A program made the translations under genes and the position numbers. From Patescibacteria group bacterium (lineage in GTDB: Bacteria; Patescibacteriota; Microgenomatia; UBA1400; MFAQ01): 64,000 nt of DNA. This document shows positions 2,514 through 24,720 of the stretch, one piece after another (positions within the stretch are counted from its first letter, which is position 1; every line of letters starts with the position of its first letter). Location of the stretch: the NCBI GenBank assembly GCA_943355005.1, contig CALRDV010000003.1:72590-136589 (forward strand). Direction: 5' to 3'. The notes below the pieces were generated by a model. It was not told where the DNA came from. It worked only from the letters and a program-made list of their open reading frames with translations, and did not search any database.

Positions 2514-3224
2514 TTATTGATTTCGGTAACGGCCTGGTTCAAGCTGAAGTAGTGCATCCCCGGTTTCTGCGTCGACGTAGGGGGCCGCTTCGCTGTAACC
2601 TGCGTTGTTAGCTGCAAGATATTTTGCCCTTGCCCTTGGGTCTTCAAAAAGGAACTGTGCCTCTTTGACGAGCCCTGCAATATTCGAACTTTGTTCCAGT
2701 TGTCTGTCCAATGTTGGTCCCGAAAAGGCACCCTTCGTGACTGTCATGGTAATCATTCTGCCTGTTCGGGGGTCGGGAAGCTGGAGCTTGACGCTATCTG
2801 CTTTTTTGACTCCGTAACCACGGTTCATGCCGTAAGCGATAACCGCGAGAACACCAATAAGTACTACGGCGACAATCGCCACAATGATAATGGTAAGGCC
2901 GTATCGGGGATTAGTGGCGTACATGTACATAGACAGAGTGATTATGCCTACAAGAACGCTTGAGGCAAAGCCGCTCCATGTCTTGCCGAAGTACATAACT
3001 CCAAAGGAAACTATTCCTACGACAAAATAGAACATCAAGCTTTGACCGTACTCCGGATGAGACATGTAGAAAGCCAAACCGGTTAAGATAACGCTGATAA
3101 GAAAGCTGGCTACCAGCCCGGTCAAAGACGCTTGGCTGATTTTGAAGATGACGGTTGTGAGAATGACAATTAGAACGCCAAATAAAAGTATATATAGCCG
3201 GGGATCATTCAAGGTTATGGGCAT
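2514..3224 (-). CDS. Hypothetical membrane protein with four N-terminal TM helices and a soluble C-terminal domain.
   Basis: 236 aa ORF with hydrophobic segments. Confidence 0.6.
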   Translation of the reverse strand: MPITLNDPRLYILLFGVLIVILTTVIFKISQASLTGLVASFLISVILTGLAFYMSHPEYGQSLMFYFVVGIVSFGVMYFGKTWSGFASSVLVGIITLSMYMYATNPRYGLTIIIVAIVAVVLIGVLAVIAYGMNRGYGVKKADSVKLQLPDPRTGRMITMTVTKGAFSGPTLDRQLEQSSNIAGLVKEAQFLFEDPRARAKYLAANNAGYSEAAPYVDAETGDALLQLEPGRYRNQ

Positions 3225-13652: not shown

Positions 13653-15341
13653 ATGGAAATTATTTATGACGAGGTTGATGATGGGCTATCGGTAGAAGAT
13701 TTGCGTGAGAAATATTTTAATCTTGAGTTTTCCAACTTTTACGAACATAGTCATTCATTATTAAATAATTCTAATCGAATTGAGAATTTTTTGTGGCGTG
13801 AACCATTGAGAAAAATGAATTTAGATTTTATAAACAGAGCCGGAATCCTAATTTTGAGTGCGGAAGAAGATAAAAATGTCAATTTTTCAGTCTACAGAAG
13901 TTTATTGGCAAATTGGTTGAAAAAATCAAGTGAAGTAATGTCGACCGGATATGAGCCGAATCAATTATTTGCAAAAATTTTAAATGATGGGTTAAATAGG
14001 TATAGAAAATTTCTTGAAATAGAAAATGATCAAAATTTAAAAAAAGATATAACTTTTCTAGAATCCTCAGGTAGTATTGTTAGAGAACTTTCTAATCTCT
14101 CAAACACAACCGGTTTAGAATCGATAATTGGTGACAATTTAGAATATTTTGCTTGTGGTAAAAACGTGGAGGATCGGACGGCTTATTTTAATAACTTGGG
14201 GCTGATGGCTGACCACGACTTGGAGTTAGAAATATTGACAAAGATTGTTGCAAATCTAAACGTAGATGATTCCATAGATTTGTCTCAGACATTTTCCGTA
14301 GAAGGGGTTTCCGAAATTAATCACGCGGATTTAAACCGTAAGCAAGACGAAATCGATGTACCTCTAAAAATTTGCTATGTTTTAGCTCATGCAAAAGAAA
14401 ATAATAAAGTGGAAGAGTTTATTAAGGTATTTAAGGGATATTGTGACAGGCGTTCGTCTGTCGGTTATAGTACTTCAATTGAAGATGGACTAGTTTATAG
14501 ATTAATTGAAAGTAATATATTTTCTAAATATTCCCTGAGCGAGAATCTGGCAGATTGGTTATTTAAAGCTAAAGTAGAAAAAGTTAAAGTTGATTATTCG
14601 GAGAACAGAGCCTTTTGGAATGAAATTGCAGGTGAAACTCACTTGGACGAGGTTTGTGAAAGAATGTCCAAAATGGATCCTGAGCGAAGAATGGACTTAT
14701 TAAAAAAATGGCTACCGGACGAAGATGAATTTGTTCACAAGTTTATAGCTCAGTTAATGAATTCCGGGGTTCATAGTAGTTTAGATGAGAAGAAGGAATG
14801 GAGTGTGTGGATCGATTTACTGGATAAAAATATTGAAGTTCTTATCCAGTCCAAAAAATTGAAAGAAATCTGGGAGAGTATTGGTGCTTCACCCCAAACT
14901 CTTCTATATCAACTTGGCTTTTGGTTAGCAAATTTTCCTGTACAAAGTTTGAAAAACGTAGGTACTGAACAGCTGGATTTAATTGAAGGTGTATCACTTG
15001 GTGGATGGCGGTCTAAACTTTGTGGAAATGCTGAAATTTACTTTATTGAGGCGTTTAGTTTAAACAAAATTACTTCCTTTTATGATGGTGCTTTGCTGTA
15101 CAAAGGTTTGGGAGAAGGGGCAGCTATTTGTACTAGAGATTTTGTGGTTGAGTCAGACACGGGACGAAAAAGTATTTTTAAACGTGGTTGTTATTACGTT
15201 CCGGTATATGGTACGAGTACAAACAACTGGTCTCTTGCAAGACCTCCGGGTGGAGATGAACTACCTAGAACTTCTCAAGATTTAATGCGATTAGCTGATA
15301 GATGGAATGAAAATCATCCCGAAGTAAAACAGCAAGTTTAA
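13653..15341 (+). CDS. Large hypothetical protein (562 aa) with no recognisable motif.
   Basis: Long uninterrupted ORF that is AT-rich compared with its flanks. Confidence 0.6.
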   Translation: MEIIYDEVDDGLSVEDLREKYFNLEFSNFYEHSHSLLNNSNRIENFLWREPLRKMNLDFINRAGILILSAEEDKNVNFSVYRSLLANWLKKSSEVMSTGYEPNQLFAKILNDGLNRYRKFLEIENDQNLKKDITFLESSGSIVRELSNLSNTTGLESIIGDNLEYFACGKNVEDRTAYFNNLGLMADHDLELEILTKIVANLNVDDSIDLSQTFSVEGVSEINHADLNRKQDEIDVPLKICYVLAHAKENNKVEEFIKVFKGYCDRRSSVGYSTSIEDGLVYRLIESNIFSKYSLSENLADWLFKAKVEKVKVDYSENRAFWNEIAGETHLDEVCERMSKMDPERRMDLLKKWLPDEDEFVHKFIAQLMNSGVHSSLDEKKEWSVWIDLLDKNIEVLIQSKKLKEIWESIGASPQTLLYQLGFWLANFPVQSLKNVGTEQLDLIEGVSLGGWRSKLCGNAEIYFIEAFSLNKITSFYDGALLYKGLGEGAAICTRDFVVESDTGRKSIFKRGCYYVPVYGTSTNNWSLARPPGGDELPRTSQDLMRLADRWNENHPEVKQQV

Positions 15342-15357
15342 GATAGAATTATAGATT

Positions 15358-15966
15358 ATGAGAAGTATCCGCCCTGTTCAGAAAGTTATAGATGCGTTTG
15401 AGTCTTTGCCCGGTATTGGGCCCAAGTCGGCGGCTAGACTGGCATATTATTTATTGAATGTGCCACAGGATAAATTATCTCGTTTTGCACAGGCATTGGA
15501 GAATCTTAAGAAGGATACCAAGCTTTGTGCTTTGTGTTTTAACGTTGGTGAGGAGGAGTTTTGTCCTGTGTGTCAAGAAGAAGCAAGAGATAAAAGTTTG
15601 GTTTGTGTGGTAGAAACATCCTTGGATTTGTTGGCTTTTGAGAGAGCGGATGGATTTAAAGGTGTTTATCATGTCCTTGGTGGCTCAGTAAATCCTTTGG
15701 CCGGTATTGGTCCAAATGATTTAAGAATTCCTCAGCTGATGGCGAGACTGAAAATTGGAGAAATAAAGGAGTTGATAATTGCGACAAATCCAAACATGGA
15801 AGGGGAAGCGACGGCGATGTTTATCATTGAACGGATGAAGGAACTTGGACTGAAAGATATTGTTAGAGTGACTAGGATTGGTAGGGGTCTGCCGACGGGA
15901 GCTGATATCGAGTATGCGGACGGACAAACTCTCACCAGAGCCTTGGAAGGTCGAGGAGAGATGTAG
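15358..15966 (+). CDS. recR: Recombination protein RecR.
   Basis: C4 zinc finger CALC...CPVC and a Toprim-like C-terminal region. Conserved dnaX-ybaB-recR context. Confidence 0.9.
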   Translation: MRSIRPVQKVIDAFESLPGIGPKSAARLAYYLLNVPQDKLSRFAQALENLKKDTKLCALCFNVGEEEFCPVCQEEARDKSLVCVVETSLDLLAFERADGFKGVYHVLGGSVNPLAGIGPNDLRIPQLMARLKIGEIKELIIATNPNMEGEATAMFIIERMKELGLKDIVRVTRIGRGLPTGADIEYADGQTLTRALEGRGEM

Positions 15967-16048
15967 TCTAGTGTTGATGCTTGACGCGCAGTTTACCTCA
16001 TGATATTATAGGGTGACCGTTATTTCACAAGTTAATTGGAGGTGTTAG

Positions 16049-16588
16049 ATGATATTGAGTGTTAACATAAGCACGACAAATCAAGTTGTTGATGATCTGG
16101 TACTAAAGGCGGGATTTGACCATCCGGAGCTTATTTGGGAGGCATTGCCGGTTTCTGGGACTAAACCGCAAAACCCGAATCTTTCTGGTATGAGCCGGGT
16201 TCAGTTTTATGAACAGGTGGATAAGTATCTAAGTGAGCTTAGAGAAACTCAAGAAAGACTATTACTGATTGTAGCTGCACTTTCACAGTGGCTGGAATCT
16301 TGTGGTCGCCCTAAACTCGAAAACTTGAAGCCGAGTGATATGTCAGACAAGGAAGCCTTGAAGGTGCACCTTGACTATTTTAGGCTCGTGGTCATGGTTG
16401 AAAGACAGATTATGTCTTGCAAGGGTACTGCTATTAATGCCTATAATGCCAGGCTTGAAGCTACGAGAGTTTTAGCAAAAGTGTATTTAGAAGAAGCTGA
16501 CTTGGTGAAGGAATTGATACGATTAGGTTTTACTTTTGAAAAAAGTAAGCCTGAGCGATCGAGTTGGTGGCTATTTTTGAAATGGTAA
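16049..16588 (+). CDS. Hypothetical protein.
   Basis: 179 aa ORF. Terminator at 16591-16615 (gccggggttattcccggt followed by T7). Confidence 0.55.
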   Translation: MILSVNISTTNQVVDDLVLKAGFDHPELIWEALPVSGTKPQNPNLSGMSRVQFYEQVDKYLSELRETQERLLLIVAALSQWLESCGRPKLENLKPSDMSDKEALKVHLDYFRLVVMVERQIMSCKGTAINAYNARLEATRVLAKVYLEEADLVKELIRLGFTFEKSKPERSSWWLFLKW

Positions 16589-16631
16589 AAGCCGGGGTTA
16601 TTCCCGGTTTTTTTGTGGAAAGTGCCTAGAC

Positions 16632-16660
16632 TTGACAAGCCTATAGTAATGTGATATAAT
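16632..16660 (+). promoter_or_regulatory. Near-perfect sigma70 promoter (TTGACA, 17 nt, extended -10 TGaTATAAT).
   Basis: Read directly from cttgacaagcctatagtaatgtgatataat. Confidence 0.6.
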
Positions 16661-16807
16661 ATCCACAAGTTATCAGAGGGATATAGGGGGATAGTACGAA
16701 AGGGTCTAGGCAGCGTCCTTTAATGAGATTGAGTTCTGAATCAGAACCCAACTTTCTCGCTGTTTTAAAAATTAACCCGGGTCACCATTTGGTGACCCGG
16801 GTATTTC

Positions 16808-17299
16808 GTGTCAAAATATCTATTTATCTTCTTGGGACTTGGTTATAATGAATTAATGCCCGCACCACTAGGAGGAATTGGCCAACAGGTGGCCGACAAT
16901 TTATTTGAACTTGGGAAAAGTACTGCTAAATCCGTTGCCAAAGCGGGCACTGATTTGGCACAAACCACTATTGAGCAAATAATGGGAGCGCCAAGTGGGG
17001 TTGGGGACCCCGCTCAGAACAAGCCAAAAGAATCTTCTTCTCAAGAAATCGAAAGAAAAAAGGCGGAAGGTAAGCAGAAAGATGCTCAGCAATATAACCG
17101 AGTAAAAGCCGAGCTGGAACAGTACCGACAGAGGAAGCAGCAGCTGGATCAGCAAATTGCCAATGAAAAAGCTCAGGAGAATCGAGTGAAGCAGCAAGAA
17201 GAGGGGCAAGAAAAACAAAAGAAGGAGAGTTTTATTCAAAAATTGTTACATAAAGCTGCCGGGGGAGCTCACGGGGAGACTGATAGACAAAAAGAGTAA
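16808..17299 (+). CDS. Hypothetical protein with a Gln/Lys-rich coiled-coil C-terminus.
   Basis: 163 aa ORF. The start is uncertain and an internal Met is possible. Confidence 0.5.
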   Translation: MSKYLFIFLGLGYNELMPAPLGGIGQQVADNLFELGKSTAKSVAKAGTDLAQTTIEQIMGAPSGVGDPAQNKPKESSSQEIERKKAEGKQKDAQQYNRVKAELEQYRQRKQQLDQQIANEKAQENRVKQQEEGQEKQKKESFIQKLLHKAAGGAHGETDRQKE

Positions 17300-18997
17300 C
17301 TATATTTTTCTTAGTTGATTGTTTTCTATGACGTGGGTGACTCCGAGGGATTTTAGTTTGAAAATAATTTCGGGATTTAGGCCGTATGCGTTTATATTTT
17401 CGACCATGTCAATCCAGTCTTTTGTGGCGAAGCCGGAGAATCCGCCCAAGCGACGGTGTTTGTGAAACAGGGAGTATAAGGAACGAACAGATTCAATTTC
17501 GTGATCCGGCATGTTCCAGAGTTTGATAGGAAGTTCCAGTATGATATCGTCTGAGGGTAGATTTTTAACTTCTTGATATACGGGATGCATATTTATATTT
17601 ACTGGGTAACCTTTGAGAGGTAGGTCGGCTTCCAGAAACAAAAATGAAAGTATAAGTAGTATAAATGTAAATTTTGTCTTGGCAGCGAGATTCTTGAAAA
17701 TGGGAACTAGCTTGTAGCCGATAATGATTACTGCTGCGAGTAATGCGAGGAGGATGAAGCGGCTGGGAGTGCGGAAGCCGGTGAAGCCTGGGAAGAGGTA
17801 ATAGAAAAGGGCGTACGGAAGGGGAGTGGGGAAGCTAAATATTCGAAGATTTTTGCCGAATATCTTGAGGACTGGGCCGAGGGACATGATAAGGGAGAAG
17901 AATAAAATATATTTCCAGGGATCAAAAATATGGCGTTTCGGACCGCGCCAAAGAAATTGCGTTAAGTATTTCTTCAATGTCATTCCGGGCTTGACCCGGA
18001 ATCTATATAAATAAAATCCGCTAATTCTGGATTCCGGCTCGGTGGCCGGAATGACGACTTTTCTGTTTAGCCTGGATTGCCACGCCTTTTGAAATAGGCT
18101 CTCAATGACAAGAGTTGTGATAAAAAGAGTAATTACTGTCCGGCTGTGATATTTGGTGAAGATTTCGTCCAATCCTAGTGAGAAGGCGGCGGCGTCGCGG
18201 ATGGGTCGGGTGGCTTCGGGAAATTGTAAATGAAGCTGGAGATATGGAAAGAGTAAAGATATCCAGAGTGGAAGAATGAAAATGAATTGAATTAGAATTT
18301 TTAGAAACTGCTCTTTCTTTCTCCAAAACAGACAAAAACAAGCGAAAAAGATTAAGTAAAAGGTAAAAATGCTTTCAGCTAATTGGGCCGTACTGGAGAG
18401 CAGAACAAGTGTAAGAAAGATATTTTTGTCTGTGTCTTGGTATCTGAGGTAGAAATAGATGGTTAGGATAGTGAGCCAAAGTGAGAAAATTTGTAAATGG
18501 GGTAAGTAGGATAGGTGGAAGCCGGTAAAATTGAAAAGAATTGTAGCCAATAACGTAACCCAGTGATCCTTGAATAAATAGTTAAAAAGTAGGTATGAGC
18601 TAATGATGGTCAGGAGGAAATTAGTGATTAAAGCAACGTTAAAAATTAATACCGGGTGATTGGTCAGAGCTCGAAATGGGAGGGTTATTATGGATGTAGT
18701 CAAAAAGAGGTCGGAATAGGTAAGGGTGTCTTTCTCCGGGGCGAAAAAAGTGCCAGAATATAGAGGTTTGTGCTCGATTAAGTTGTTTTGAACTTGACCG
18801 ATGATATAAGCAATGAGACGAGTGTCGTTGTTGTCCGGTAGGATGTCCTTGGGGTAGATAAAAGCCGACGGATAAACAAATAATATTAGAAGTATCGAAA
18901 AAATGCTGATGATAAGCCACTTTCTGACCTGCAAGGAGAGTCCTTGCAGGTAAATAGGGGTATGGGGATTCATGGCTAGAGTATAGCAGTGATACAA
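17300..18997 (-). CDS. Large polytopic membrane protein. A GT-C-type glycosyltransferase-like fold is possible but not verified.
   Basis: 565 aa with many TM segments. A composite hairpin repeat is embedded in-frame at 17979-18085. Confidence 0.7.
   Translation of the reverse strand: MYHCYTLAMNPHTPIYLQGLSLQVRKWLIISIFSILLILFVYPSAFIYPKDILPDNNDTRLIAYIIGQVQNNLIEHKPLYSGTFFAPEKDTLTYSDLFLTTSIITLPFRALTNHPVLIFNVALITNFLLTIISSYLLFNYLFKDHWVTLLATILFNFTGFHLSYLPHLQIFSLWLTILTIYFYLRYQDTDKNIFLTLVLLSSTAQLAESIFTFYLIFFACFCLFWRKKEQFLKILIQFIFILPLWISLLFPYLQLHLQFPEATRPIRDAAAFSLGLDEIFTKYHSRTVITLFITTLVIESLFQKAWQSRLNRKVVIPATEPESRISGFYLYRFRVKPGMTLKKYLTQFLWRGPKRHIFDPWKYILFFSLIMSLGPVLKIFGKNLRIFSFPTPLPYALFYYLFPGFTGFRTPSRFILLALLAAVIIIGYKLVPIFKNLAAKTKFTFILLILSFLFLEADLPLKGYPVNINMHPVYQEVKNLPSDDIILELPIKLWNMPDHEIESVRSLYSLFHKHRRLGGFSGFATKDWIDMVENINAYGLNPEIIFKLKSLGVTHVIENNQLRKI
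17979..18085. repeat. Composite hairpin repeat: reverse type B unit, forward type B unit, then a partial type E unit, all inside the membrane protein CDS.
   Basis: tgtcattccgggcttgacccggaatctatata ... ctggattccggctcggtggccggaatgacgac ... ggattgccacg. Confidence 0.8.
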
Positions 18998-19039
18998 TAT
19001 AGGGTGTAACGGAAATTTGTACCTTAAGGAGTTTAAAAA

Positions 19040-19507
19040 ATGAACAGATTCCAGGTAGATGATTTGGAAATATTGTCAAAGTTGGCTTTGAATGGAAATG
19101 AAAACAGTCGAGAGGTTTGCGTTTCCTATTGGTCTGGAGTACTAACGGCTCTATATATTGCAAGGGAATATGCCCGGGCTCATGTCGACGCTCCAAGATG
19201 GGCTTTTTGGAAACTGGTTTTCGGAAAAATCTCTCCTGTACCTTCCAGGGCTGCTTTCCTAAATCTACTGGAAGAGTACACAAACGACGAGTTTTTCTTT
19301 CCTGGAGATATGATTATAAACAATGACTCCAGAATAGGTGTGTTTGGCGAATATTATTATAAGGGTATGGCTGATGCTATTGAGGTGGGTATTAGACAAG
19401 CACCAAAAGTATTTGAGTTAGTTTCGTCAAAAAGTACAGAGGATTTGAGGGATTGGCTTATGTCGAAGATTAGCTGGGCTAGACAAAACCTGGAAAAGTA
19501 TTTGTGA
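19040..19507 (+). CDS. Hypothetical protein.
   Basis: 155 aa ORF. Terminator at 19515-19542 (gcgacccgccacggcgggtcgc followed by T5). Confidence 0.5.
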   Translation: MNRFQVDDLEILSKLALNGNENSREVCVSYWSGVLTALYIAREYARAHVDAPRWAFWKLVFGKISPVPSRAAFLNLLEEYTNDEFFFPGDMIINNDSRIGVFGEYYYKGMADAIEVGIRQAPKVFELVSSKSTEDLRDWLMSKISWARQNLEKYL

Positions 19508-19710
19508 GATTTGAGCGACCCGCCACGGCGGGTCGCTTTTTGTTGATTGTGGTATATTTGACTATTAAACTAGGTTTGGAAGCGTGCACCAAACTGTAGA
19601 AGGCGGCTAATGACCGACGAAGTCCTGCGTAAAAGGATAAATTAAGAAATCCGCCATAAGGCGAGACTAAAGCGTTGAGGTGGAACCGTCCGACCTAAAG
19701 TCGAGACCCG

Positions 19711-19736
19711 CAACAAATATTTATAAATATTTGTTG
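19711..19736. promoter_or_regulatory. Perfect 26-nt palindrome caacaaatatttataaatatttgttg, ending 2 nt before the PIG-L start codon.
   Basis: Read directly. It overlaps the expected ribosome-binding region. Confidence 0.45.
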
Positions 19737-19738
19737 TT

Positions 19739-20461
19739 ATGAAATCAATCGATAGTTATTTGAGTCAGATTACCAATAAAAAATTGTTGGTGGTTTTTCC
19801 GCACCCGGATGATGAATCCGTCATGGCGGGAGGTATTATCCAAAGAGCAATGACTCATGGCTTTCAGGTGACAGTGCTTACTCTTACTGAGGGTGATAGG
19901 GGAAAGATACATATTTCCGGAAAGGGGAGAAGTGTGGCAGAAATCCGCAGGCAGGAAATGGCGCTAGCTATGAGTAGGCTAGGGGTGATGGATTGGATTA
20001 TGTGGAGATTTGATGACGGCAAACTTCGGCAAAAGAATGTTTGGAGGGATAGACTTAAAAATTTTATCTCGGATACTAAACCTGGTTTGATAGTCACCTA
20101 CGATTTATCAGGAGTTACGAGTCATCCTGACCACATTAGTGCCTCTTTGGAGGTATTGAGGGAGGTAAAAAGAGGTGGAACCGCCAAACTTCTTTGGGTA
20201 AGTTTTGAGGGTTTTATGAAAGATAGGATAGTGGATAAAAGAGTGCTGAGTTATTTGAAATCGCCTAAGTACTCATTACGTTTAAGCCGCAGAGATGCTG
20301 CGAAGAAGTGGCGAGCGGTCTTTGCGCATAAAAGCCAGGGGCTAGGTGGCTTCCTGGGTTTCCCTTGGTGGATGCTAATGTTTGTAGCTAGACATGAGTG
20401 GTACTCTGAATTCGAGCCTGATGCTAAGTACAAATACAAGTTCGTGCCGTTCAAAATCTAG
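19739..20461 (+). CDS. PIG-L/LmbE family deacetylase.
   Basis: N-terminal VVFPHPDDESVMAGG motif typical of LmbE-like N-acetylglucosaminyl deacetylases. Confidence 0.8.
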   Translation: MKSIDSYLSQITNKKLLVVFPHPDDESVMAGGIIQRAMTHGFQVTVLTLTEGDRGKIHISGKGRSVAEIRRQEMALAMSRLGVMDWIMWRFDDGKLRQKNVWRDRLKNFISDTKPGLIVTYDLSGVTSHPDHISASLEVLREVKRGGTAKLLWVSFEGFMKDRIVDKRVLSYLKSPKYSLRLSRRDAAKKWRAVFAHKSQGLGGFLGFPWWMLMFVARHEWYSEFEPDAKYKYKFVPFKI

Positions 20462-20535
20462 CCTATAGCTGGAATATTGGGTGGTTTTGGTGTAGAATAG
20501 GCAAGAAATTCTTTGAAAACTAATTGGAGGAATAA

Positions 20536-20904
20536 ATGGCAGATCAAAAAAGTTTGTTGCATACGGTGAATGAAATATTATCTGGTCACTTGACGGCGTT
20601 CGATGACATGTATATAGCAGGTACTTTAGCCGCTCTAGTATTGGTTCGCCACATGATCAGCAGTGGAATTGGTTTAAACTATTTCCACAATATACTGGCC
20701 TTTTACCCCTCGGGGAAAAAAGATTACAACAGGGGTTTAGTCGATAGTTTCGAAAGTCTGTACAAATGCTGGAAAGAGGCTTACGGAGTTGGTGGAAATA
20801 GACTAGCAACCAACAAGGTTCTTGAAATAATCGATCAAGTCGAGAAAAGAATTGAGACCGGTTCTTTAGATATTTCACAAGGTACCAAAAAGGGTACGAG
20901 ATAA
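20536..20904 (+). CDS. Hypothetical protein, member 1 of a four-gene paralog cassette.
   Basis: 122 aa. Shares the C-terminal motif Y-x2-G-[LVIM]-x2-[SG]-F-x3-[YFV]-x2-[YWF]. Its RBS and start ggaggaataaatggcag is identical to that of the next gene. Confidence 0.55.
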   Translation: MADQKSLLHTVNEILSGHLTAFDDMYIAGTLAALVLVRHMISSGIGLNYFHNILAFYPSGKKDYNRGLVDSFESLYKCWKEAYGVGGNRLATNKVLEIIDQVEKRIETGSLDISQGTKKGTR

Positions 20905-20923
20905 ACAATGTGTGGAGGAATAA

Positions 20924-21379
20924 ATGGCAGCAAAAAGGCTTGAAGACTTTTGGTTACTGAAGTTTAAATTAGAAGTGAAAGCTTCGAAAGAGGCTACTTT
21001 GAGTGATTATTCTGGCGGAATTCATTATGGGATCTTGACCGGACTGAAAATTGCATCTGTGATGGTTGCTAATAAATTAGTTTCTGATCAAGATGTGTAC
21101 TGTATTTTGGTTAGTAATAACGTAACAATCGAGCAAATTATTGCGGCCTTGAATAACATGCATGCCTCAAGAGGTGTGGTTTACGAAACCAGATACATTT
21201 TGCATAACTTTTCGGGAAAGCCAGGAAAGAAATACTACGATGCTGGGGTTGAACTCGGGTTTAACTATGTCTTCGACATGTACCAAGCTTATATTGATGC
21301 TGGGGCAACATCTGAAGGTGCCAAAAATGTTGTGAAGTTTCGTATTAATCAGCTTCATCGTGAAGTTCTATATTCTTAA
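20924..21379 (+). CDS. Hypothetical protein, paralog 2.
   Basis: 151 aa. Motif YDAGVELGFNYVFDMY. N-terminal similarity to the ORF at 21936. Confidence 0.55.
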   Translation: MAAKRLEDFWLLKFKLEVKASKEATLSDYSGGIHYGILTGLKIASVMVANKLVSDQDVYCILVSNNVTIEQIIAALNNMHASRGVVYETRYILHNFSGKPGKKYYDAGVELGFNYVFDMYQAYIDAGATSEGAKNVVKFRINQLHREVLYS

Positions 21380-21851
21380 GTTTGGAGGAAGAATTATGAT
21401 TCCGTCACTTGAAACAGAACTGGATGTATTTATCGCCACACATGACTCATCTGAAATTCGAGCATATAAGGATGGATTAAAAACGGGGTTGAATTTATTT
21501 GAGAGTTTAATTCAGAAGGGTTTGAGACATATGCCTAAAGAGTTATGGCATTTCCTCATGGAAAAGAGAATTAAGCGTCTCAGTTTTGGAGACTTGATGA
21601 TTGGAGTACAAACTGAATCGGGGATGTCGACCAATCCGGCCTTGTATATAAATCAAGACGATTACCTTTGTAAAGGAACCATGCACCAGTCCTACCTACA
21701 AGGTATGGTAGACAGTTTTTATGCTGCCTATGTCGTGTTTGAAGGAACCCACCTCCAAGTAGATGCAAAATCTGATGTTTGGGTGGAAGCAGAGAGACTG
21801 ACAGCAAAATTTCTTTACCGCTTAAGGACCTATATCGAAGAGGCCCAGTAA
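21360..21851 (+). CDS. Hypothetical protein, paralog 3.
   Basis: 163 aa. Motif YLQGMVDSFYAAYVVF. Followed by the terminator gtccccgccaatggcggggcttttt. Confidence 0.55.
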   Translation: MKFYILKFGGRIMIPSLETELDVFIATHDSSEIRAYKDGLKTGLNLFESLIQKGLRHMPKELWHFLMEKRIKRLSFGDLMIGVQTESGMSTNPALYINQDDYLCKGTMHQSYLQGMVDSFYAAYVVFEGTHLQVDAKSDVWVEAERLTAKFLYRLRTYIEEAQ

Positions 21852-21852
21852 A

Positions 21853-21882
21853 TATTGTCCCCGCCAATGGCGGGGCTTTTTT
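21853..21882 (+). terminator. Rho-independent terminator.
   Basis: gtccccgccaatggcggggc followed by tttttt. An identical hairpin recurs at 22403. Confidence 0.7.
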
Positions 21883-21935
21883 GTGATTGTGATAAACTTG
21901 GCGGGAAATTACCTTGATAATTAATTGGAGGTCAA

Positions 21936-22394
21936 ATGGATAAGGTTTTTGACGATTTTCTGGTCTCGGTGAAATTAAAGTTGATTGAGATGCAACAATC
22001 CCACTTTTTTATTGGAGCAATCGAGAGCGTACAGTTCGGAACTGTTACCGGGCTAATCTTGGGAAAAGCTTGGATCGCCGGATTGAAACCGGTAACCTTT
22101 AACGATTACCACTGGTTAGTTCTTGGTTATTTATCTGAACCGAGAGATGAAATTGAGGTTTGTCTGGAAAAAGCGAACGAGTATATGCTGCCGGACCATA
22201 AATTTACCAAAGATATGTACGAAGGGAGCGGAGGAAGAAAGGTGTTTTTTAAGGAATATCAGCAAGGGATTAGAAATGGTTTCCTCTACGCAGTTGATCT
22301 ATTTAATCTTTACAATGAGAGACTTGCAAAAGATGCTCTTAAGTTTGCGACCGATCACTTGGATTGTGTAATTTCTGCTTTAAAAGACTTTTAA
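21936..22394 (+). CDS. Hypothetical protein, paralog 4.
   Basis: 152 aa. Motif YQQGIRNGFLYAVDLF. Followed by the same terminator. Confidence 0.55.
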   Translation: MDKVFDDFLVSVKLKLIEMQQSHFFIGAIESVQFGTVTGLILGKAWIAGLKPVTFNDYHWLVLGYLSEPRDEIEVCLEKANEYMLPDHKFTKDMYEGSGGRKVFFKEYQQGIRNGFLYAVDLFNLYNERLAKDALKFATDHLDCVISALKDF

Positions 22395-22402
22395 TAGATA
22401 GG

Positions 22403-22432
22403 TTTGTCCCCGCCAATGGCGGGGCTTTTTGT
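22403..22432 (+). terminator. Rho-independent terminator, identical to the one at 21853.
   Basis: gtccccgccaatggcggggc followed by ttttt. Confidence 0.7.
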
Positions 22433-22462
22433 GTTCGGGGGGTAAAGTGGGTTAAAATATAG

Positions 22463-23902
22463 GTGATGCTAAAGATATTTAATTCGCTATCCAAGAATAT
22501 TGAGGAATTTAAGCCTATTAAGCTGGGCGAGGTGGGTATGTATGCCTGTGGTCCCACGGTCTACGACTATCCTCATATCGGCCATGGACGGAAATATGTG
22601 AACGATGACGTCCTGAAACGGGTTCTGGAGGTAGTGGAGGGTTACAAGGTGGAGCATGTGCAAAACATTACCGATGTGGGGCACTTGGTATCGGATGCCG
22701 ACGAAGGTGAAGATAAGCTGGAAAAGGGAGCCAAGAAAGCCGGGAAGACGGTCTGGGAGGTAGCTCAGGAGTTTACCGATTATTTTTTGAAGGAAATGGA
22801 CTCTTTGAATATTATCCGCCCGGACATTGAGTGCAAGGCGACGGATCACATTCCTGAACAAGTTGAACTGATAAAGAAGATTATTGAAAATGGTTATGGT
22901 TATGATACTGCTGAAGCGGTTTACTTTGATGTGACTAAGTTTGAAGATTATGGAAAGCTTTTTGGGCAGTCCTTGGAGGATAAGCTGGTGGGAGTTCGTG
23001 AGGAAGTGGTGACGGACAATAGTAAGAAACATCCGGCTGACTTTGCTTTGTGGTTTAAAAGAGTCGGGAAGTATGCCGATCATGTGATGCATTGGGAAAG
23101 TCCTTGGGGAGATGGCTTCCCCGGCTGGCATATCGAGTGTAGTGCCATGAGCATGAAGTATCTGGGAGAGCAAATTGATTTGCATACAGGCGGAGAAGAT
23201 CACTTGTCCATTCACCATCCAAATGAAATTGCCCAGAGTGAAGCGGCGACCGGAAAGAAGCCTTTTGTAAAGTACTGGTTCCATAGTTTGTTCCTTGCGG
23301 TCGATGGTAAGAAAATGAGTAAAAGTTTGGGTAATGTCTACAAAGTCGCCGATATCGTGGAAAAAGGTTTTTCACCTATGGCACTTAGATACTATTATTT
23401 ATCTGCACACTATCGTAAACAAATGAATTTTTCCTGGGAGGGAATGGAGGGGGTTTCGAATTCGTATAAGAAACTGAAGAAGGAATTTTTGTCTTTGCGA
23501 GTAGAAGGAGGGCAGGACAAAAATGTTTTTGGTAAAAATGCAGTAGAACTTTCCGGCAGAGAAACATATTTCCGTGATGAGTTTGTAAATGCGGTGGAAA
23601 ATGATTTGAACATGTCTGAAGCTTTGGCAGTAGCCCGAGCTGTCTTAAAGGATGACATTCTTTCTTCTTTTGAGAAAAGAAGATTGGTGGAAAACTTTGA
23701 TAAAGTTTTTGGACTTAAACTTTCGGAGCACGATGATATGCCAATCGAAGTCCCGGCCGAAGTGACAGAGCTTGTAAACAAAAGAGAAGAAATGAGAAAG
23801 TCCAAACAGTGGGCAGAGTCCGACTCACTACGACTTGAAATCGAAAAACTTGGCTACAAGGTTTCAGACTTTTTTGACGGGGTAAAAGTGGAAAAAATAT
23901 AG
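22463..23902 (+). CDS. cysS: Cysteinyl-tRNA synthetase.
   Basis: HIGH-class motif [12 protein letters not shown] motif KMSKSLGN, and an N-terminus like CysS. Confidence 0.9.
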
Positions 23903-23945
23903 CTTGGATTGCCACGACCCGCCGTGGCGGGTCTCGCAATGACTG
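23894..23945 (+). repeat. Hairpin repeat, type E variant with a GC-rich stem (ggattgccacgacccgccgtggcgggtctcgcaatgac).
   Basis: ATTGC...GCAATGAC ends are shared with the other type E units. It probably acts as the cysS terminator. Confidence 0.7.
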
Positions 23946-23964
23946 ACGGAGTATAATTAGAAGA

Positions 23965-24720
23965 ATGGAAATATATATCGTCGGTATTATTCTTTTCGTA
24001 TTGTTTTCGAGTTTGAAGATTGTTCAAGAGTACGAAAGGGGTGTTATCTTTTTTCTTGGTAGGTGTACCGGTGTTCGTGGTCCTGGACTAATTATTCTGA
24101 TTCCTTTCTTGGAGGTAATGAAAAAAGTTCAATTGAGAACTATAACCATGGGGATTCCGTCACAAAAGATAATCACCAAGGATAACGTTTCCATTGATAT
24201 CGCGGCTGTCGCTTATTACCATTTGGTAGATCCGATGAAATCGGTGGTGGCGATAGATGATGTCTATAGTGCAGTAAATCAAATTTCCCAGACTACCGTG
24301 CGAAACGTGGTCGGTCAATTCACCCTGGATGAACTACTTTCTCAGACCACGAAAATAAATCAACAGATTCAAAAGGTAATTGATACTCATACTGAACCTT
24401 GGGGGGCTCAGGTCACTGCTGTAGAGATTAAAGATATTGCTTTACCGGACAATATGCAAAGAGCAATGGCGAAAGAAGCCGAAGCCGAGAGAGAGAGAAG
24501 AGCAAAGGTGGTCGCAGCCGAAGGAGAGTTCCAATCAGCTCAGAAACTAGCTGAAGCTGCAGACGTAATCTCAGCTCACCCGGTAGCTTTACAGCTCAGA
24601 ACATTGCAAACAATGGCAGAGATTTCTGTAGAAAAGAATTCAACTATTATTTTCCCGGCTCAGTTTATGACCACGGTGCAAGAGGCTATCTCGATGATAA
24701 GAGGGGATAATAAGAAGTAG
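23965..24720 (+). CDS. SPFH/band-7 (stomatin-like) membrane protein.
   Basis: N-terminal TM, a band-7 core, and a C-terminal AEAERER coiled coil. Confidence 0.8.
   Translation: MEIYIVGIILFVLFSSLKIVQEYERGVIFFLGRCTGVRGPGLIILIPFLEVMKKVQLRTITMGIPSQKIITKDNVSIDIAAVAYYHLVDPMKSVVAIDDVYSAVNQISQTTVRNVVGQFTLDELLSQTTKINQQIQKVIDTHTEPWGAQVTAVEIKDIALPDNMQRAMAKEAEAERERRAKVVAAEGEFQSAQKLAEAADVISAHPVALQLRTLQTMAEISVEKNSTIIFPAQFMTTVQEAISMIRGDNKK

Follow-up and report, generated by a model that had tools for sequence, protein, structure and literature searches.

We analyzed a stretch of 64,000 nt from a Patescibacteria group bacterium (GenBank assembly GCA_943355005.1, contig CALRDV010000003.1, positions 72,590–136,589), hereafter the window, with attention to a group of small genes upstream of cysS, the gene of cysteinyl-tRNA synthetase (CysRS). 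An initial annotation of this region had described four tandem paralogous small proteins, encoded here by g1–g4; we found a further member, g0, and gave the family of g0–g4 the name FAM. Between g0 and the g1–g4 cassette lies a gene of a PIG-L deacetylase (Table 1). The five genes form three transcription units (g0; g1-g2-g3; g4), each of which has a related leader and a terminator with a GC hairpin. The leader motif GAAATT..CYTTRA followed by (A/T)GGAG had exactly three matches in the 64 kb, all of them before the three FAM units. The ribosome-binding sites (RBSs), the terminators and the orthologues under purifying selection show g0–g4 to be real genes that look expressed.

Table 1. Features of the FAM locus (positions in the window).
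Feature	Position	Strand	Remarks
g0 leader	18985..19039	+	promoter/leader with motif GAAATT..CYTTRA at 19012-19027, then AAGGAG RBS
g0	19040..19507	+	155 aa, G0 subfamily, fifth FAM member, outside the region of the initial annotation
g0 intrinsic terminator	19513..19538	+	GC-rich stem of 11 bp, then T-run
PIG-L/LmbE-family deacetylase gene	19739..20461	+	Pfam PF02585, E 6e-28; islet gene, not FAM
Leader of g1-g2-g3 unit	20462..20535	+	promoter/leader with -10-like TAGAAT and leader GGCAAGAAATTCTTTGAAAACTAATTGGAGG
18-nt RBS/start repeat TGGAGGAATAAATGGCAG, copy 1 (at g1)	20525..20542	+	
g1	20536..20904	+	122 aa, truncated divergent FAM member
18-nt RBS/start repeat TGGAGGAATAAATGGCAG, copy 2 (at g2)	20913..20930	+	
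g2	20924..21379	+	151 aa, G2 branch within G4 clade
g3	21396..21851	+	151 aa, G3 subfamily, start moved from GTG 21360 to ATG 21396
27-nt terminator TTGTCCCCGCCAATGGCGGGGCTTTTT, copy 1	21855..21881	+	closes g1-g2-g3 unit
g4 leader	21882..21935	+	promoter/leader with -10-like GATAAACT and leader GGCGGGAAATTACCTTGATAATTAATTGGAGG
g4	21936..22394	+	152 aa, most widespread subfamily; in most genomes the copy adjoining cysS
27-nt terminator TTGTCCCCGCCAATGGCGGGGCTTTTT, copy 2	22404..22430	+	directly upstream of cysS promoter/start
cysS (cysteinyl-tRNA synthetase, CysRS)	22463-23902		

Three of the four open reading frames (ORFs) initially annotated, g1, g2 and g4, were as described. The third also exists, but its start had to be moved: the reading from GTG 21360 gives a product of 163 aa that overlaps g2 and was not on record. 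The sequence GGAGG lies 7 nt upstream of ATG 21396, and the 151-aa product from this codon is exactly the public gene call; g3 was therefore taken as beginning there.

Pairwise comparison of the proteins gave one significant pair, g2–g4 (22% identity over 118 aa; BLASTP E 6e-4, phmmer E 1e-3 among 452 window ORFs), and all other pairs failed. The outcome that the initial annotation had named as counting against it, no significant pairwise similarity beyond a short motif, was therefore nearly what was found. The non-significant BLAST and phmmer results, together with hhalign comparisons that did not decide with 1–2 sequences per group, are what speaks for the explanation that the four ORFs are not homologous, that their common motif and regulatory snippets are due to chance or composition, and that some of them are perhaps not genes. 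Pairwise BLAST and phmmer as well as shallow hhalign proved too weak to decide homology, and deeper subfamily profiles replaced them. With these profiles, hhalign aligned G4 with G2 at a probability of 98.3% (E 1.5e-14, 106 columns), with G0 at 92.9% (E 3.7e-7) and with G3 at 90.3% (E 1.5e-6). Scored against a profile built without it, g1 reached 20.0 bits, which corresponds to E 1.2e-5 among 452 ORFs; none of 2000 shuffles scored as high, and the best had 9.1 bits. Against a profile of non-window sequences only, it gave E 4.7e-4 in two collinear stretches skipping profile positions ~53–103. The match of g0 to a profile of non-window members had E 2.9e-21; g0 also bears both helix motifs of the family (SYWSGVLTALYI and YYKGMADAI; see below) and has the orthologue-like counterparts P0013 and P0021 in other genomes. 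The external-only profile picked exactly five window ORFs, g0–g4, with the next best ORF at E 0.25.

Tandem paralogy was thus borne out by profile–profile comparison for g2, g3 and g4 and by leave-one-out profiles for g1, and g0–g4 are true paralogs of one family. Profile–profile E values of 1e-6 to 1e-14, leave-one-out and external-only profiles that picked g0–g4 from the window and no further ORF, orthologues elsewhere under purifying selection, and confident AlphaFold2 models of g4 and g1 with the same helix order refute non-homology. The C-terminal motif of the initial annotation, Y-x2-G-[LIVM]-x2-[SGN]-F-x3-[YFV]-x2-[YWF], matched in exactly the four strings for which it had been reported and nowhere else in the 45,986 aa of window ORFs of at least 50 aa. 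Residue shuffles gave a mean of 0.005 matches, a contrast inflated by the post hoc definition of the motif.

The AlphaFold2 model of g4, based on an 18-sequence alignment, was all-alpha (predicted local distance difference test, pLDDT, 89.9; predicted TM-score, pTM, 0.87), with six helices at residues 8–21, 26–48, 59–66, 73–83, 99–103 and 105–151, the last one 47 residues long. The g1 model (pLDDT 81, pTM 0.72) had helices at 2–15, 22–43, 47–54 and 62–108; it retained helices H1, H2, H3 and the long H6 and was without the central H4 and H5. Both modelled members are all-alpha, and their helices come in one order; g1 only lacks the central pair and is thus a minimal version of the fold. For these two members, the structure prediction advised in the initial annotation agrees with a single family. 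The C-terminal motif coincides with the beginning of helix 6. Motifs of the form Y-x2-G-h-x2-[GSA]-h are present in helix 2 and in the 47-residue helix 6, and their pairing was the best off-diagonal match in a self-comparison by hhalign; at E 0.11 it was not significant, and an internal two-fold duplication of FAM was rejected.

Only two glycines were invariant across FAM; the other well-conserved positions were Tyr/Phe and hydrophobic residues. We found no conserved catalytic-type polar residues across the family and no His, Cys, Asp or Glu pattern pointing to catalysis. A median isoelectric point of 5.5 makes the proteins mildly acidic, and a maximum 19-residue Kyte–Doolittle hydropathy of 0.7–1.6 marks them as soluble. 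Neither a signal peptide nor a lipobox or a transmembrane segment was detected by hydropathy and inspection of the N-termini, which were polar or amphipathic (no dedicated signal-peptide predictor was used); the proposed surface location is not supported. Foldseek returned no significant neighbor for the g4 model (best E 0.81 in the PDB and 0.35 in BFVD), nor for the g1 model in the PDB (best E 1.6).

No family match for FAM was obtained in Pfam, NCBIfam, PHROG or PADLOC, and 18 members had no match in Pfam. A word-index search of 5.8e9 proteins, a method nearly blind to FAM (2–5 matches), gave P0002 as the sole relative (76% identity to g4). Exhaustive HMMER searching of 1.84e9 representatives with the paralog profile gave 18 matches at E <= 1e-3. 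Of these 18, ~10 were new small proteins of 137–163 aa, and three, the long repetitive proteins P0010, P0012 and P0020, owed their scores to the summing of repeats and were discarded as artefacts. Scanning genome contigs with g4 peptide patterns gave no match.

These searches also bear on a phage origin or a role in anti-phage defense, to which the initial annotation had alluded as a phage-related function. All that agrees with such an origin is that the genes are small, fast-evolving, unannotated and in tandem, a generic pattern. The best PHROG match had E 0.13, PADLOC returned nothing meaningful, tblastn against the 50,697 phage records of INPHARED gave no match, and a scan of IMG/VR revealed no relative. 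Foldseek against BFVD gave no fold match, and the flanks of the locus are housekeeping genes in conserved synteny. We consider a phage or defense function very improbable.

To establish the distribution of FAM, loci were collected from GTDB species representatives with the window cysS as the anchor, which yielded 80 loci, and the scan with the FAM hidden Markov model was iterated to convergence. The closest loci belonged to metagenome-assembled genomes of Candidatus Collierbacteria (Microgenomates, candidate phyla radiation, CPR), their cysS being 84–91% identical to that of the window. FAM was seen only in loci with a cysS identity to the window of 61% or more; in the more distant Patescibacteria among the cysS-anchored loci, we detected none. 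All of the ~30 FAM contexts seen lay in the same interval, recR-p163...cysS, within a conserved backbone of recR, p163, a variable islet, cysS and band7. The islet was empty in L022, L023, L025 and L026, contained in L013, L024 and L029 the opposite-strand gene of a ~565-aa membrane protein and nothing else, held only FAM in L019–L021, and held combinations including PIG-L in L010, L011, L030–L033 and L091; FAM was missing from the interval in L013, L022–26, L028, L029 and L049. The survey of copy number, also advised in the initial annotation, found 0–5 FAM genes per locus: 0–2 in most genomes, 3 in L001 and L004, 4 in L006 and 5 in the window. A single-copy G4-like gene stood directly upstream of cysS in L020, L021, L027 and L030. 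The common interval, the limit to one clade and the absences within it therefore characterize FAM as an accessory, clade-restricted family of one chromosomal hot spot.

The hot spot itself deserves description. The interval from recR/p163 to cysS (window ~15358–24720; L010–L033, L091) varies in gene content, and its cargo comprises, in any combination, the ~565-aa multi-pass membrane protein, PIG-L, a small Zn-ribbon protein and 0–5 FAM genes. In the window, the islet membrane protein of 565 aa (17300–18997, minus strand) is conserved and had no Pfam match at E <= 0.01; the same search result was obtained for a 562-aa ORF at 13653–15341 (plus strand). The p163 gene (16808–17296, plus strand) encodes a charged protein of ~147 aa that follows recR in all Collierbacteria loci examined, with counterparts in L003 (48–491), L005 (10–420), L008 (1146–1589) and L030 (4387–4830). 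The protein starts with MPAPxGGIGQQVADNLFELGKS and runs into a Q/K/E-rich, coiled-coil-like tail that closes with GETAKQKE; no Pfam match was found for it.

The position of FAM raises the question of an accessory factor coupled to its neighbors, either to CysRS as a tRNA- or synthetase-associated protein or to the envelope-modification genes for PIG-L and the large membrane protein. Such coupling would agree with the presence, in most loci reaching cysS, of a same-strand FAM gene directly upstream of it (otherwise the membrane protein or PIG-L intervenes), and with the frequent co-occurrence of FAM with PIG-L and the 565-aa membrane protein. However, in L019–L021 and L006, FAM has no PIG-L or membrane protein gene beside it, both of these genes occur without FAM in L013, L015, L024 and L029, and several Collierbacteria have recR-p163-cysS without any FAM gene. 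Moreover, the stretch between g4 and cysS contains a strong terminator as well as a separate promoter-like region. The independent occurrence and the terminator mean that a shared insertion hot spot would explain the adjacency to cysS equally well, and we regard functional coupling as unlikely.

A neighbor-joining tree of 40 FAM members had long branches and three deep groups: g3 with g1, g0, and g4 with g2. The window paralogs are ~16–20% identical, and their coding regions have no nucleotide similarity. Since the five copies fall into different groups, and other genomes have these groups too, the duplications are old. In the closest relative, L001 (GCA_964650595.1), the order was PIG-L - g2b - g3b - g4b - cysS, with the N-terminal part of cysS 94% identical, and g1 was absent. 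Genes g2 and g2b were 72% identical (dN/dS 0.13), and g4 and g4b (P0002) 76% (dN/dS 0.09), with dS for g2 and g4 of ~1.4–1.5, near saturation; by this codon comparison, both g2 and g4 show the signature of purifying selection. The gene at the g3 position was only 23.5% identical, compared with 72–76% for its FAM neighbors, and was too diverged for dN/dS. The term "diversifying" in the initial annotation is thus contradicted for g2 and g4, yet the g3 position turns over quickly and the copy number ranges from 0 to 5. PIG-L was 61% identical between the window and L001. Against this value and the near-saturated synonymous sites of g2 and g4, the 94% amino acid identity of CysRS is unusually high; it may be due to very strong constraint, or cysS may have been exchanged recently.

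Array structure and turnover of this kind would also be expected of orphan immunity- or antitoxin-like proteins that neutralize the bacterium's own, a competitor's or a host's toxins in an arms race; immunity proteins were among the possibilities named in the initial annotation. The closest parallel is the tandem immunity-protein arrays of polymorphic toxin systems, reportedly described by Zhang, Aravind and co-workers in 2012; they and FAM alike consist of small, often all-alpha proteins in tandem divergent paralogs of variable copy number. Immunity would account for arrays in which small, soluble, all-alpha paralogs stand in tandem and differ greatly in sequence, for 0–5 copies in a genomic hot spot, for the very fast divergence at the g3 position and for the lack of conserved catalytic residues. 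On the other hand, in the ~30 loci examined there was no toxin partner: no adjacent toxin-like gene, secretion-associated domain or mobile element was found, and the neighbors were recR, p163, the membrane protein, PIG-L, the small Zn-ribbon protein, cysS and band7. There was no match to a Pfam Imm family or in PADLOC. Unlike immunity arrays, FAM occupies a fixed chromosomal site flanked by housekeeping genes, not mobile contexts, and selection on g2 and g4 is of the ordinary purifying kind. We give an immunity function a low probability.

The identical regulatory sequences reported at the outset were confirmed. Genes g1 and g2 share the 18-nt start context TGGAGGAATAAATGGCAG (at 20525 and 20913), an identity far above shuffle expectation, and g3 and g4 are followed by the same 27-nt terminator, TTGTCCCCGCCAATGGCGGGGCTTTTT, which had 0 matches in 100 shuffles; both copies score as intrinsic terminators. 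The leader of the g1-g2-g3 unit is 80% identical to the g4 leader and orthologous to the leaders that drive g2b in L001 and the lone FAM gene in L003. In L001, g2b is driven directly by the leader that drives g1 in the window, where g1 lies precisely between the RBS/start and the body of g2, with the 18-nt direct repeat on both sides. This arrangement fits two histories: g1 was inserted and the RBS/start duplicated in the process, or L001 lost g1 through recombination between the repeats. The sequence TGGAGGAATAAATG was also found before an unrelated gene at 3224, where 14 of the 18 nt of the repeat recur; part of the 18-nt identity may therefore reflect a preferred RBS.

As to the terminators, the hairpin after the g3 position differs in L001 (AAATCACCTCCTTCGGGGGTGATTTTTT) while the flanking promoter sequence is conserved, and the cysS-proximal hairpin is the same, at the same position, in the window and L001. 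The g3 hairpin was therefore swapped in one of the lineages; the window version copies the one that lies 549 nt downstream. Stems of the type CCCCGCC...GGCGGGG are the generic terminator style in the Collierbacteria clade, so that only the loop and the flanks carry independent information.

The initial annotation had explained these identities by tandem duplication of whole expression units. Promoter/leader and terminator sequences are indeed shared, but not as relics of the gene duplications, the paralogs being ~16–20% identical members of old subfamilies. Because those duplications are ancient, the identical RBS and terminator are not their leftovers; they go back to recent local copying or conversion, or are signals that the genome prefers. 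The 18-nt identity would go back to a recent local event, the insertion or loss of g1 at the g2 RBS/start, and the 27-nt identity to another, the replacement of the g3 hairpin by a copy of the cysS-proximal one; selection for preferred signals may reinforce both.

Leaders of FAM units were alike within one genome and different between genomes. The two FAM units of L004 (leaders at 60–120 and 1085–1142) share a near-identical leader of their own, of the type CATCTT.GTTCGTTTACAGGAGG, and the window leaders (20462–20535 and 21882–21935) are of the type GGCAAGAAATT..CTTTGA..AATTGGAGG. This likeness suggests concerted evolution, or co-regulation through a shared regulator site.

Taken together, the cassette is probably a lineage-specific expansion of an undescribed family of ~150-aa soluble all-alpha proteins with a non-enzymatic binding or oligomerizing role, its repeats having arisen by local events. 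FAM proteins would be non-enzymatic helical bundles that bind partners, and/or that form homo- or hetero-oligomers via the long C-terminal helix, with different subfamilies supplying different specificities. G0-like and G4-like genes are often adjacent as pairs (L006, L008, L016), which suggests hetero-oligomers.

Several points weigh against this interpretation. The origin of the 18-nt repeat in an insertion of g1 competes with convergence on a preferred RBS, given the recurrence of 14 of its 18 nt. Two things alone suggest the binding or oligomerizing role: the predicted architecture and the lack of conserved catalytic residues. That FAM is restricted to Collierbacteria derives from one search with an early, weak profile and from the 80 cysS-anchored loci, and members in other taxa, or at other sites of the Collierbacteria genomes, could have been missed. 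A bolder form of the same idea, to which we attach little credence, is that a new helical fold and hetero-oligomers of its subfamilies constitute a Collierbacteria-specific, rapidly re-assorting recognition or neutralization module, immunity-like or related to host interaction, at the hot spot beside cysS, with specificity set by copy number and subfamily composition.

CPR bacteria have many lineage-specific proteins without an assigned role, which are thought to underlie their symbiotic lifestyle. FAM offers for interaction and structure tests a delimited family with a confident model that has no Foldseek neighbor in the PDB or BFVD, a hot spot, copy-number variation of 0–5 and distinct subfamilies. 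Its value is that of a candidate for structural genomics and for the study of gene-family turnover in reduced genomes; alone, it opens no long-standing question.

A separate observation concerns the islet upstream of PIG-L. Between the g0 terminator and the PIG-L start (19540–19738, plus strand) lies an intergenic stretch of ~200 nt that is conserved at the DNA level in other Collierbacteria, with 77% identity over 171 nt in L011 and 71% over 206 nt in L010, and also in L012 and L001. It folds better than shuffles (z -2.84). RNAalifold with 4 sequences gave 27 pairs, with compensatory changes at 3; the hairpin CAACAAATATTTAT...TATTTGTTG, which abuts the start codon, is perfectly conserved. The stretch, a candidate small RNA or cis-regulatory leader, had no match in Rfam even at E <= 1; nor did Rfam searches of the FAM locus give any, whether at the gathering threshold or at E <= 1. 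The PIG-L gene, as an MshB/BshB-like enzyme beside a CysRS/MshC-like ligase, would presumably indicate low-molecular-weight thiol synthesis; this link was rejected on account of the full-length CysRS architecture of cysS (CysS_C and DALR_2 in the L091 orthologue) and the absence of PIG-L from many FAM loci.

Comparison with known systems included two helical families. In the G3 subfamily, the region of helix 2 (GLNLFESLIQKGLRHMP) looks like helix B of PPR proteins (ALKLFEEMVEKGIKPD), and in a profile search of the PDB, the FAM profile matched designer PPR proteins with E 2e-8. That match is the sum of ten identical repeats of 2–4 bits each, with individual E >= 380; since only their addition yields the E value, it was treated as an artefact, and, with no Pfam PPR or TPR match, a PPR/TPR identity of FAM was rejected. 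The Cas11/Cmr5 small subunits of type III CRISPR complexes (PDB 2zop) are, like FAM, small helical bundles, and 2zop was among the closest PDB matches of the g1 model by TM-score (0.46/0.49; root-mean-square deviation 5.1 A; E 2.3). A Cas11/Cmr5 fold, as also that of Cas10d, was rejected at this E value and TM-scores below 0.5, the full-length g4 model having no match to 2zop; cas genes or a CRISPR array were not found near the FAM locus.

FAM is undescribed in the libraries searched, and nothing points to a new kind of system. Its closest known category is that of the CPR-enriched hypothetical protein families: the families enriched in Microgenomates were described as 'primarily hypothetical proteins' (Meheust et al. 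2019, PMC6744442). FAM and these families alike are lineage-restricted, belong to a CPR group and have no annotated domain. Set apart from them by description only, FAM is narrower in distribution (Collierbacteria), accessory, soluble rather than membrane-bound, and located in one islet.

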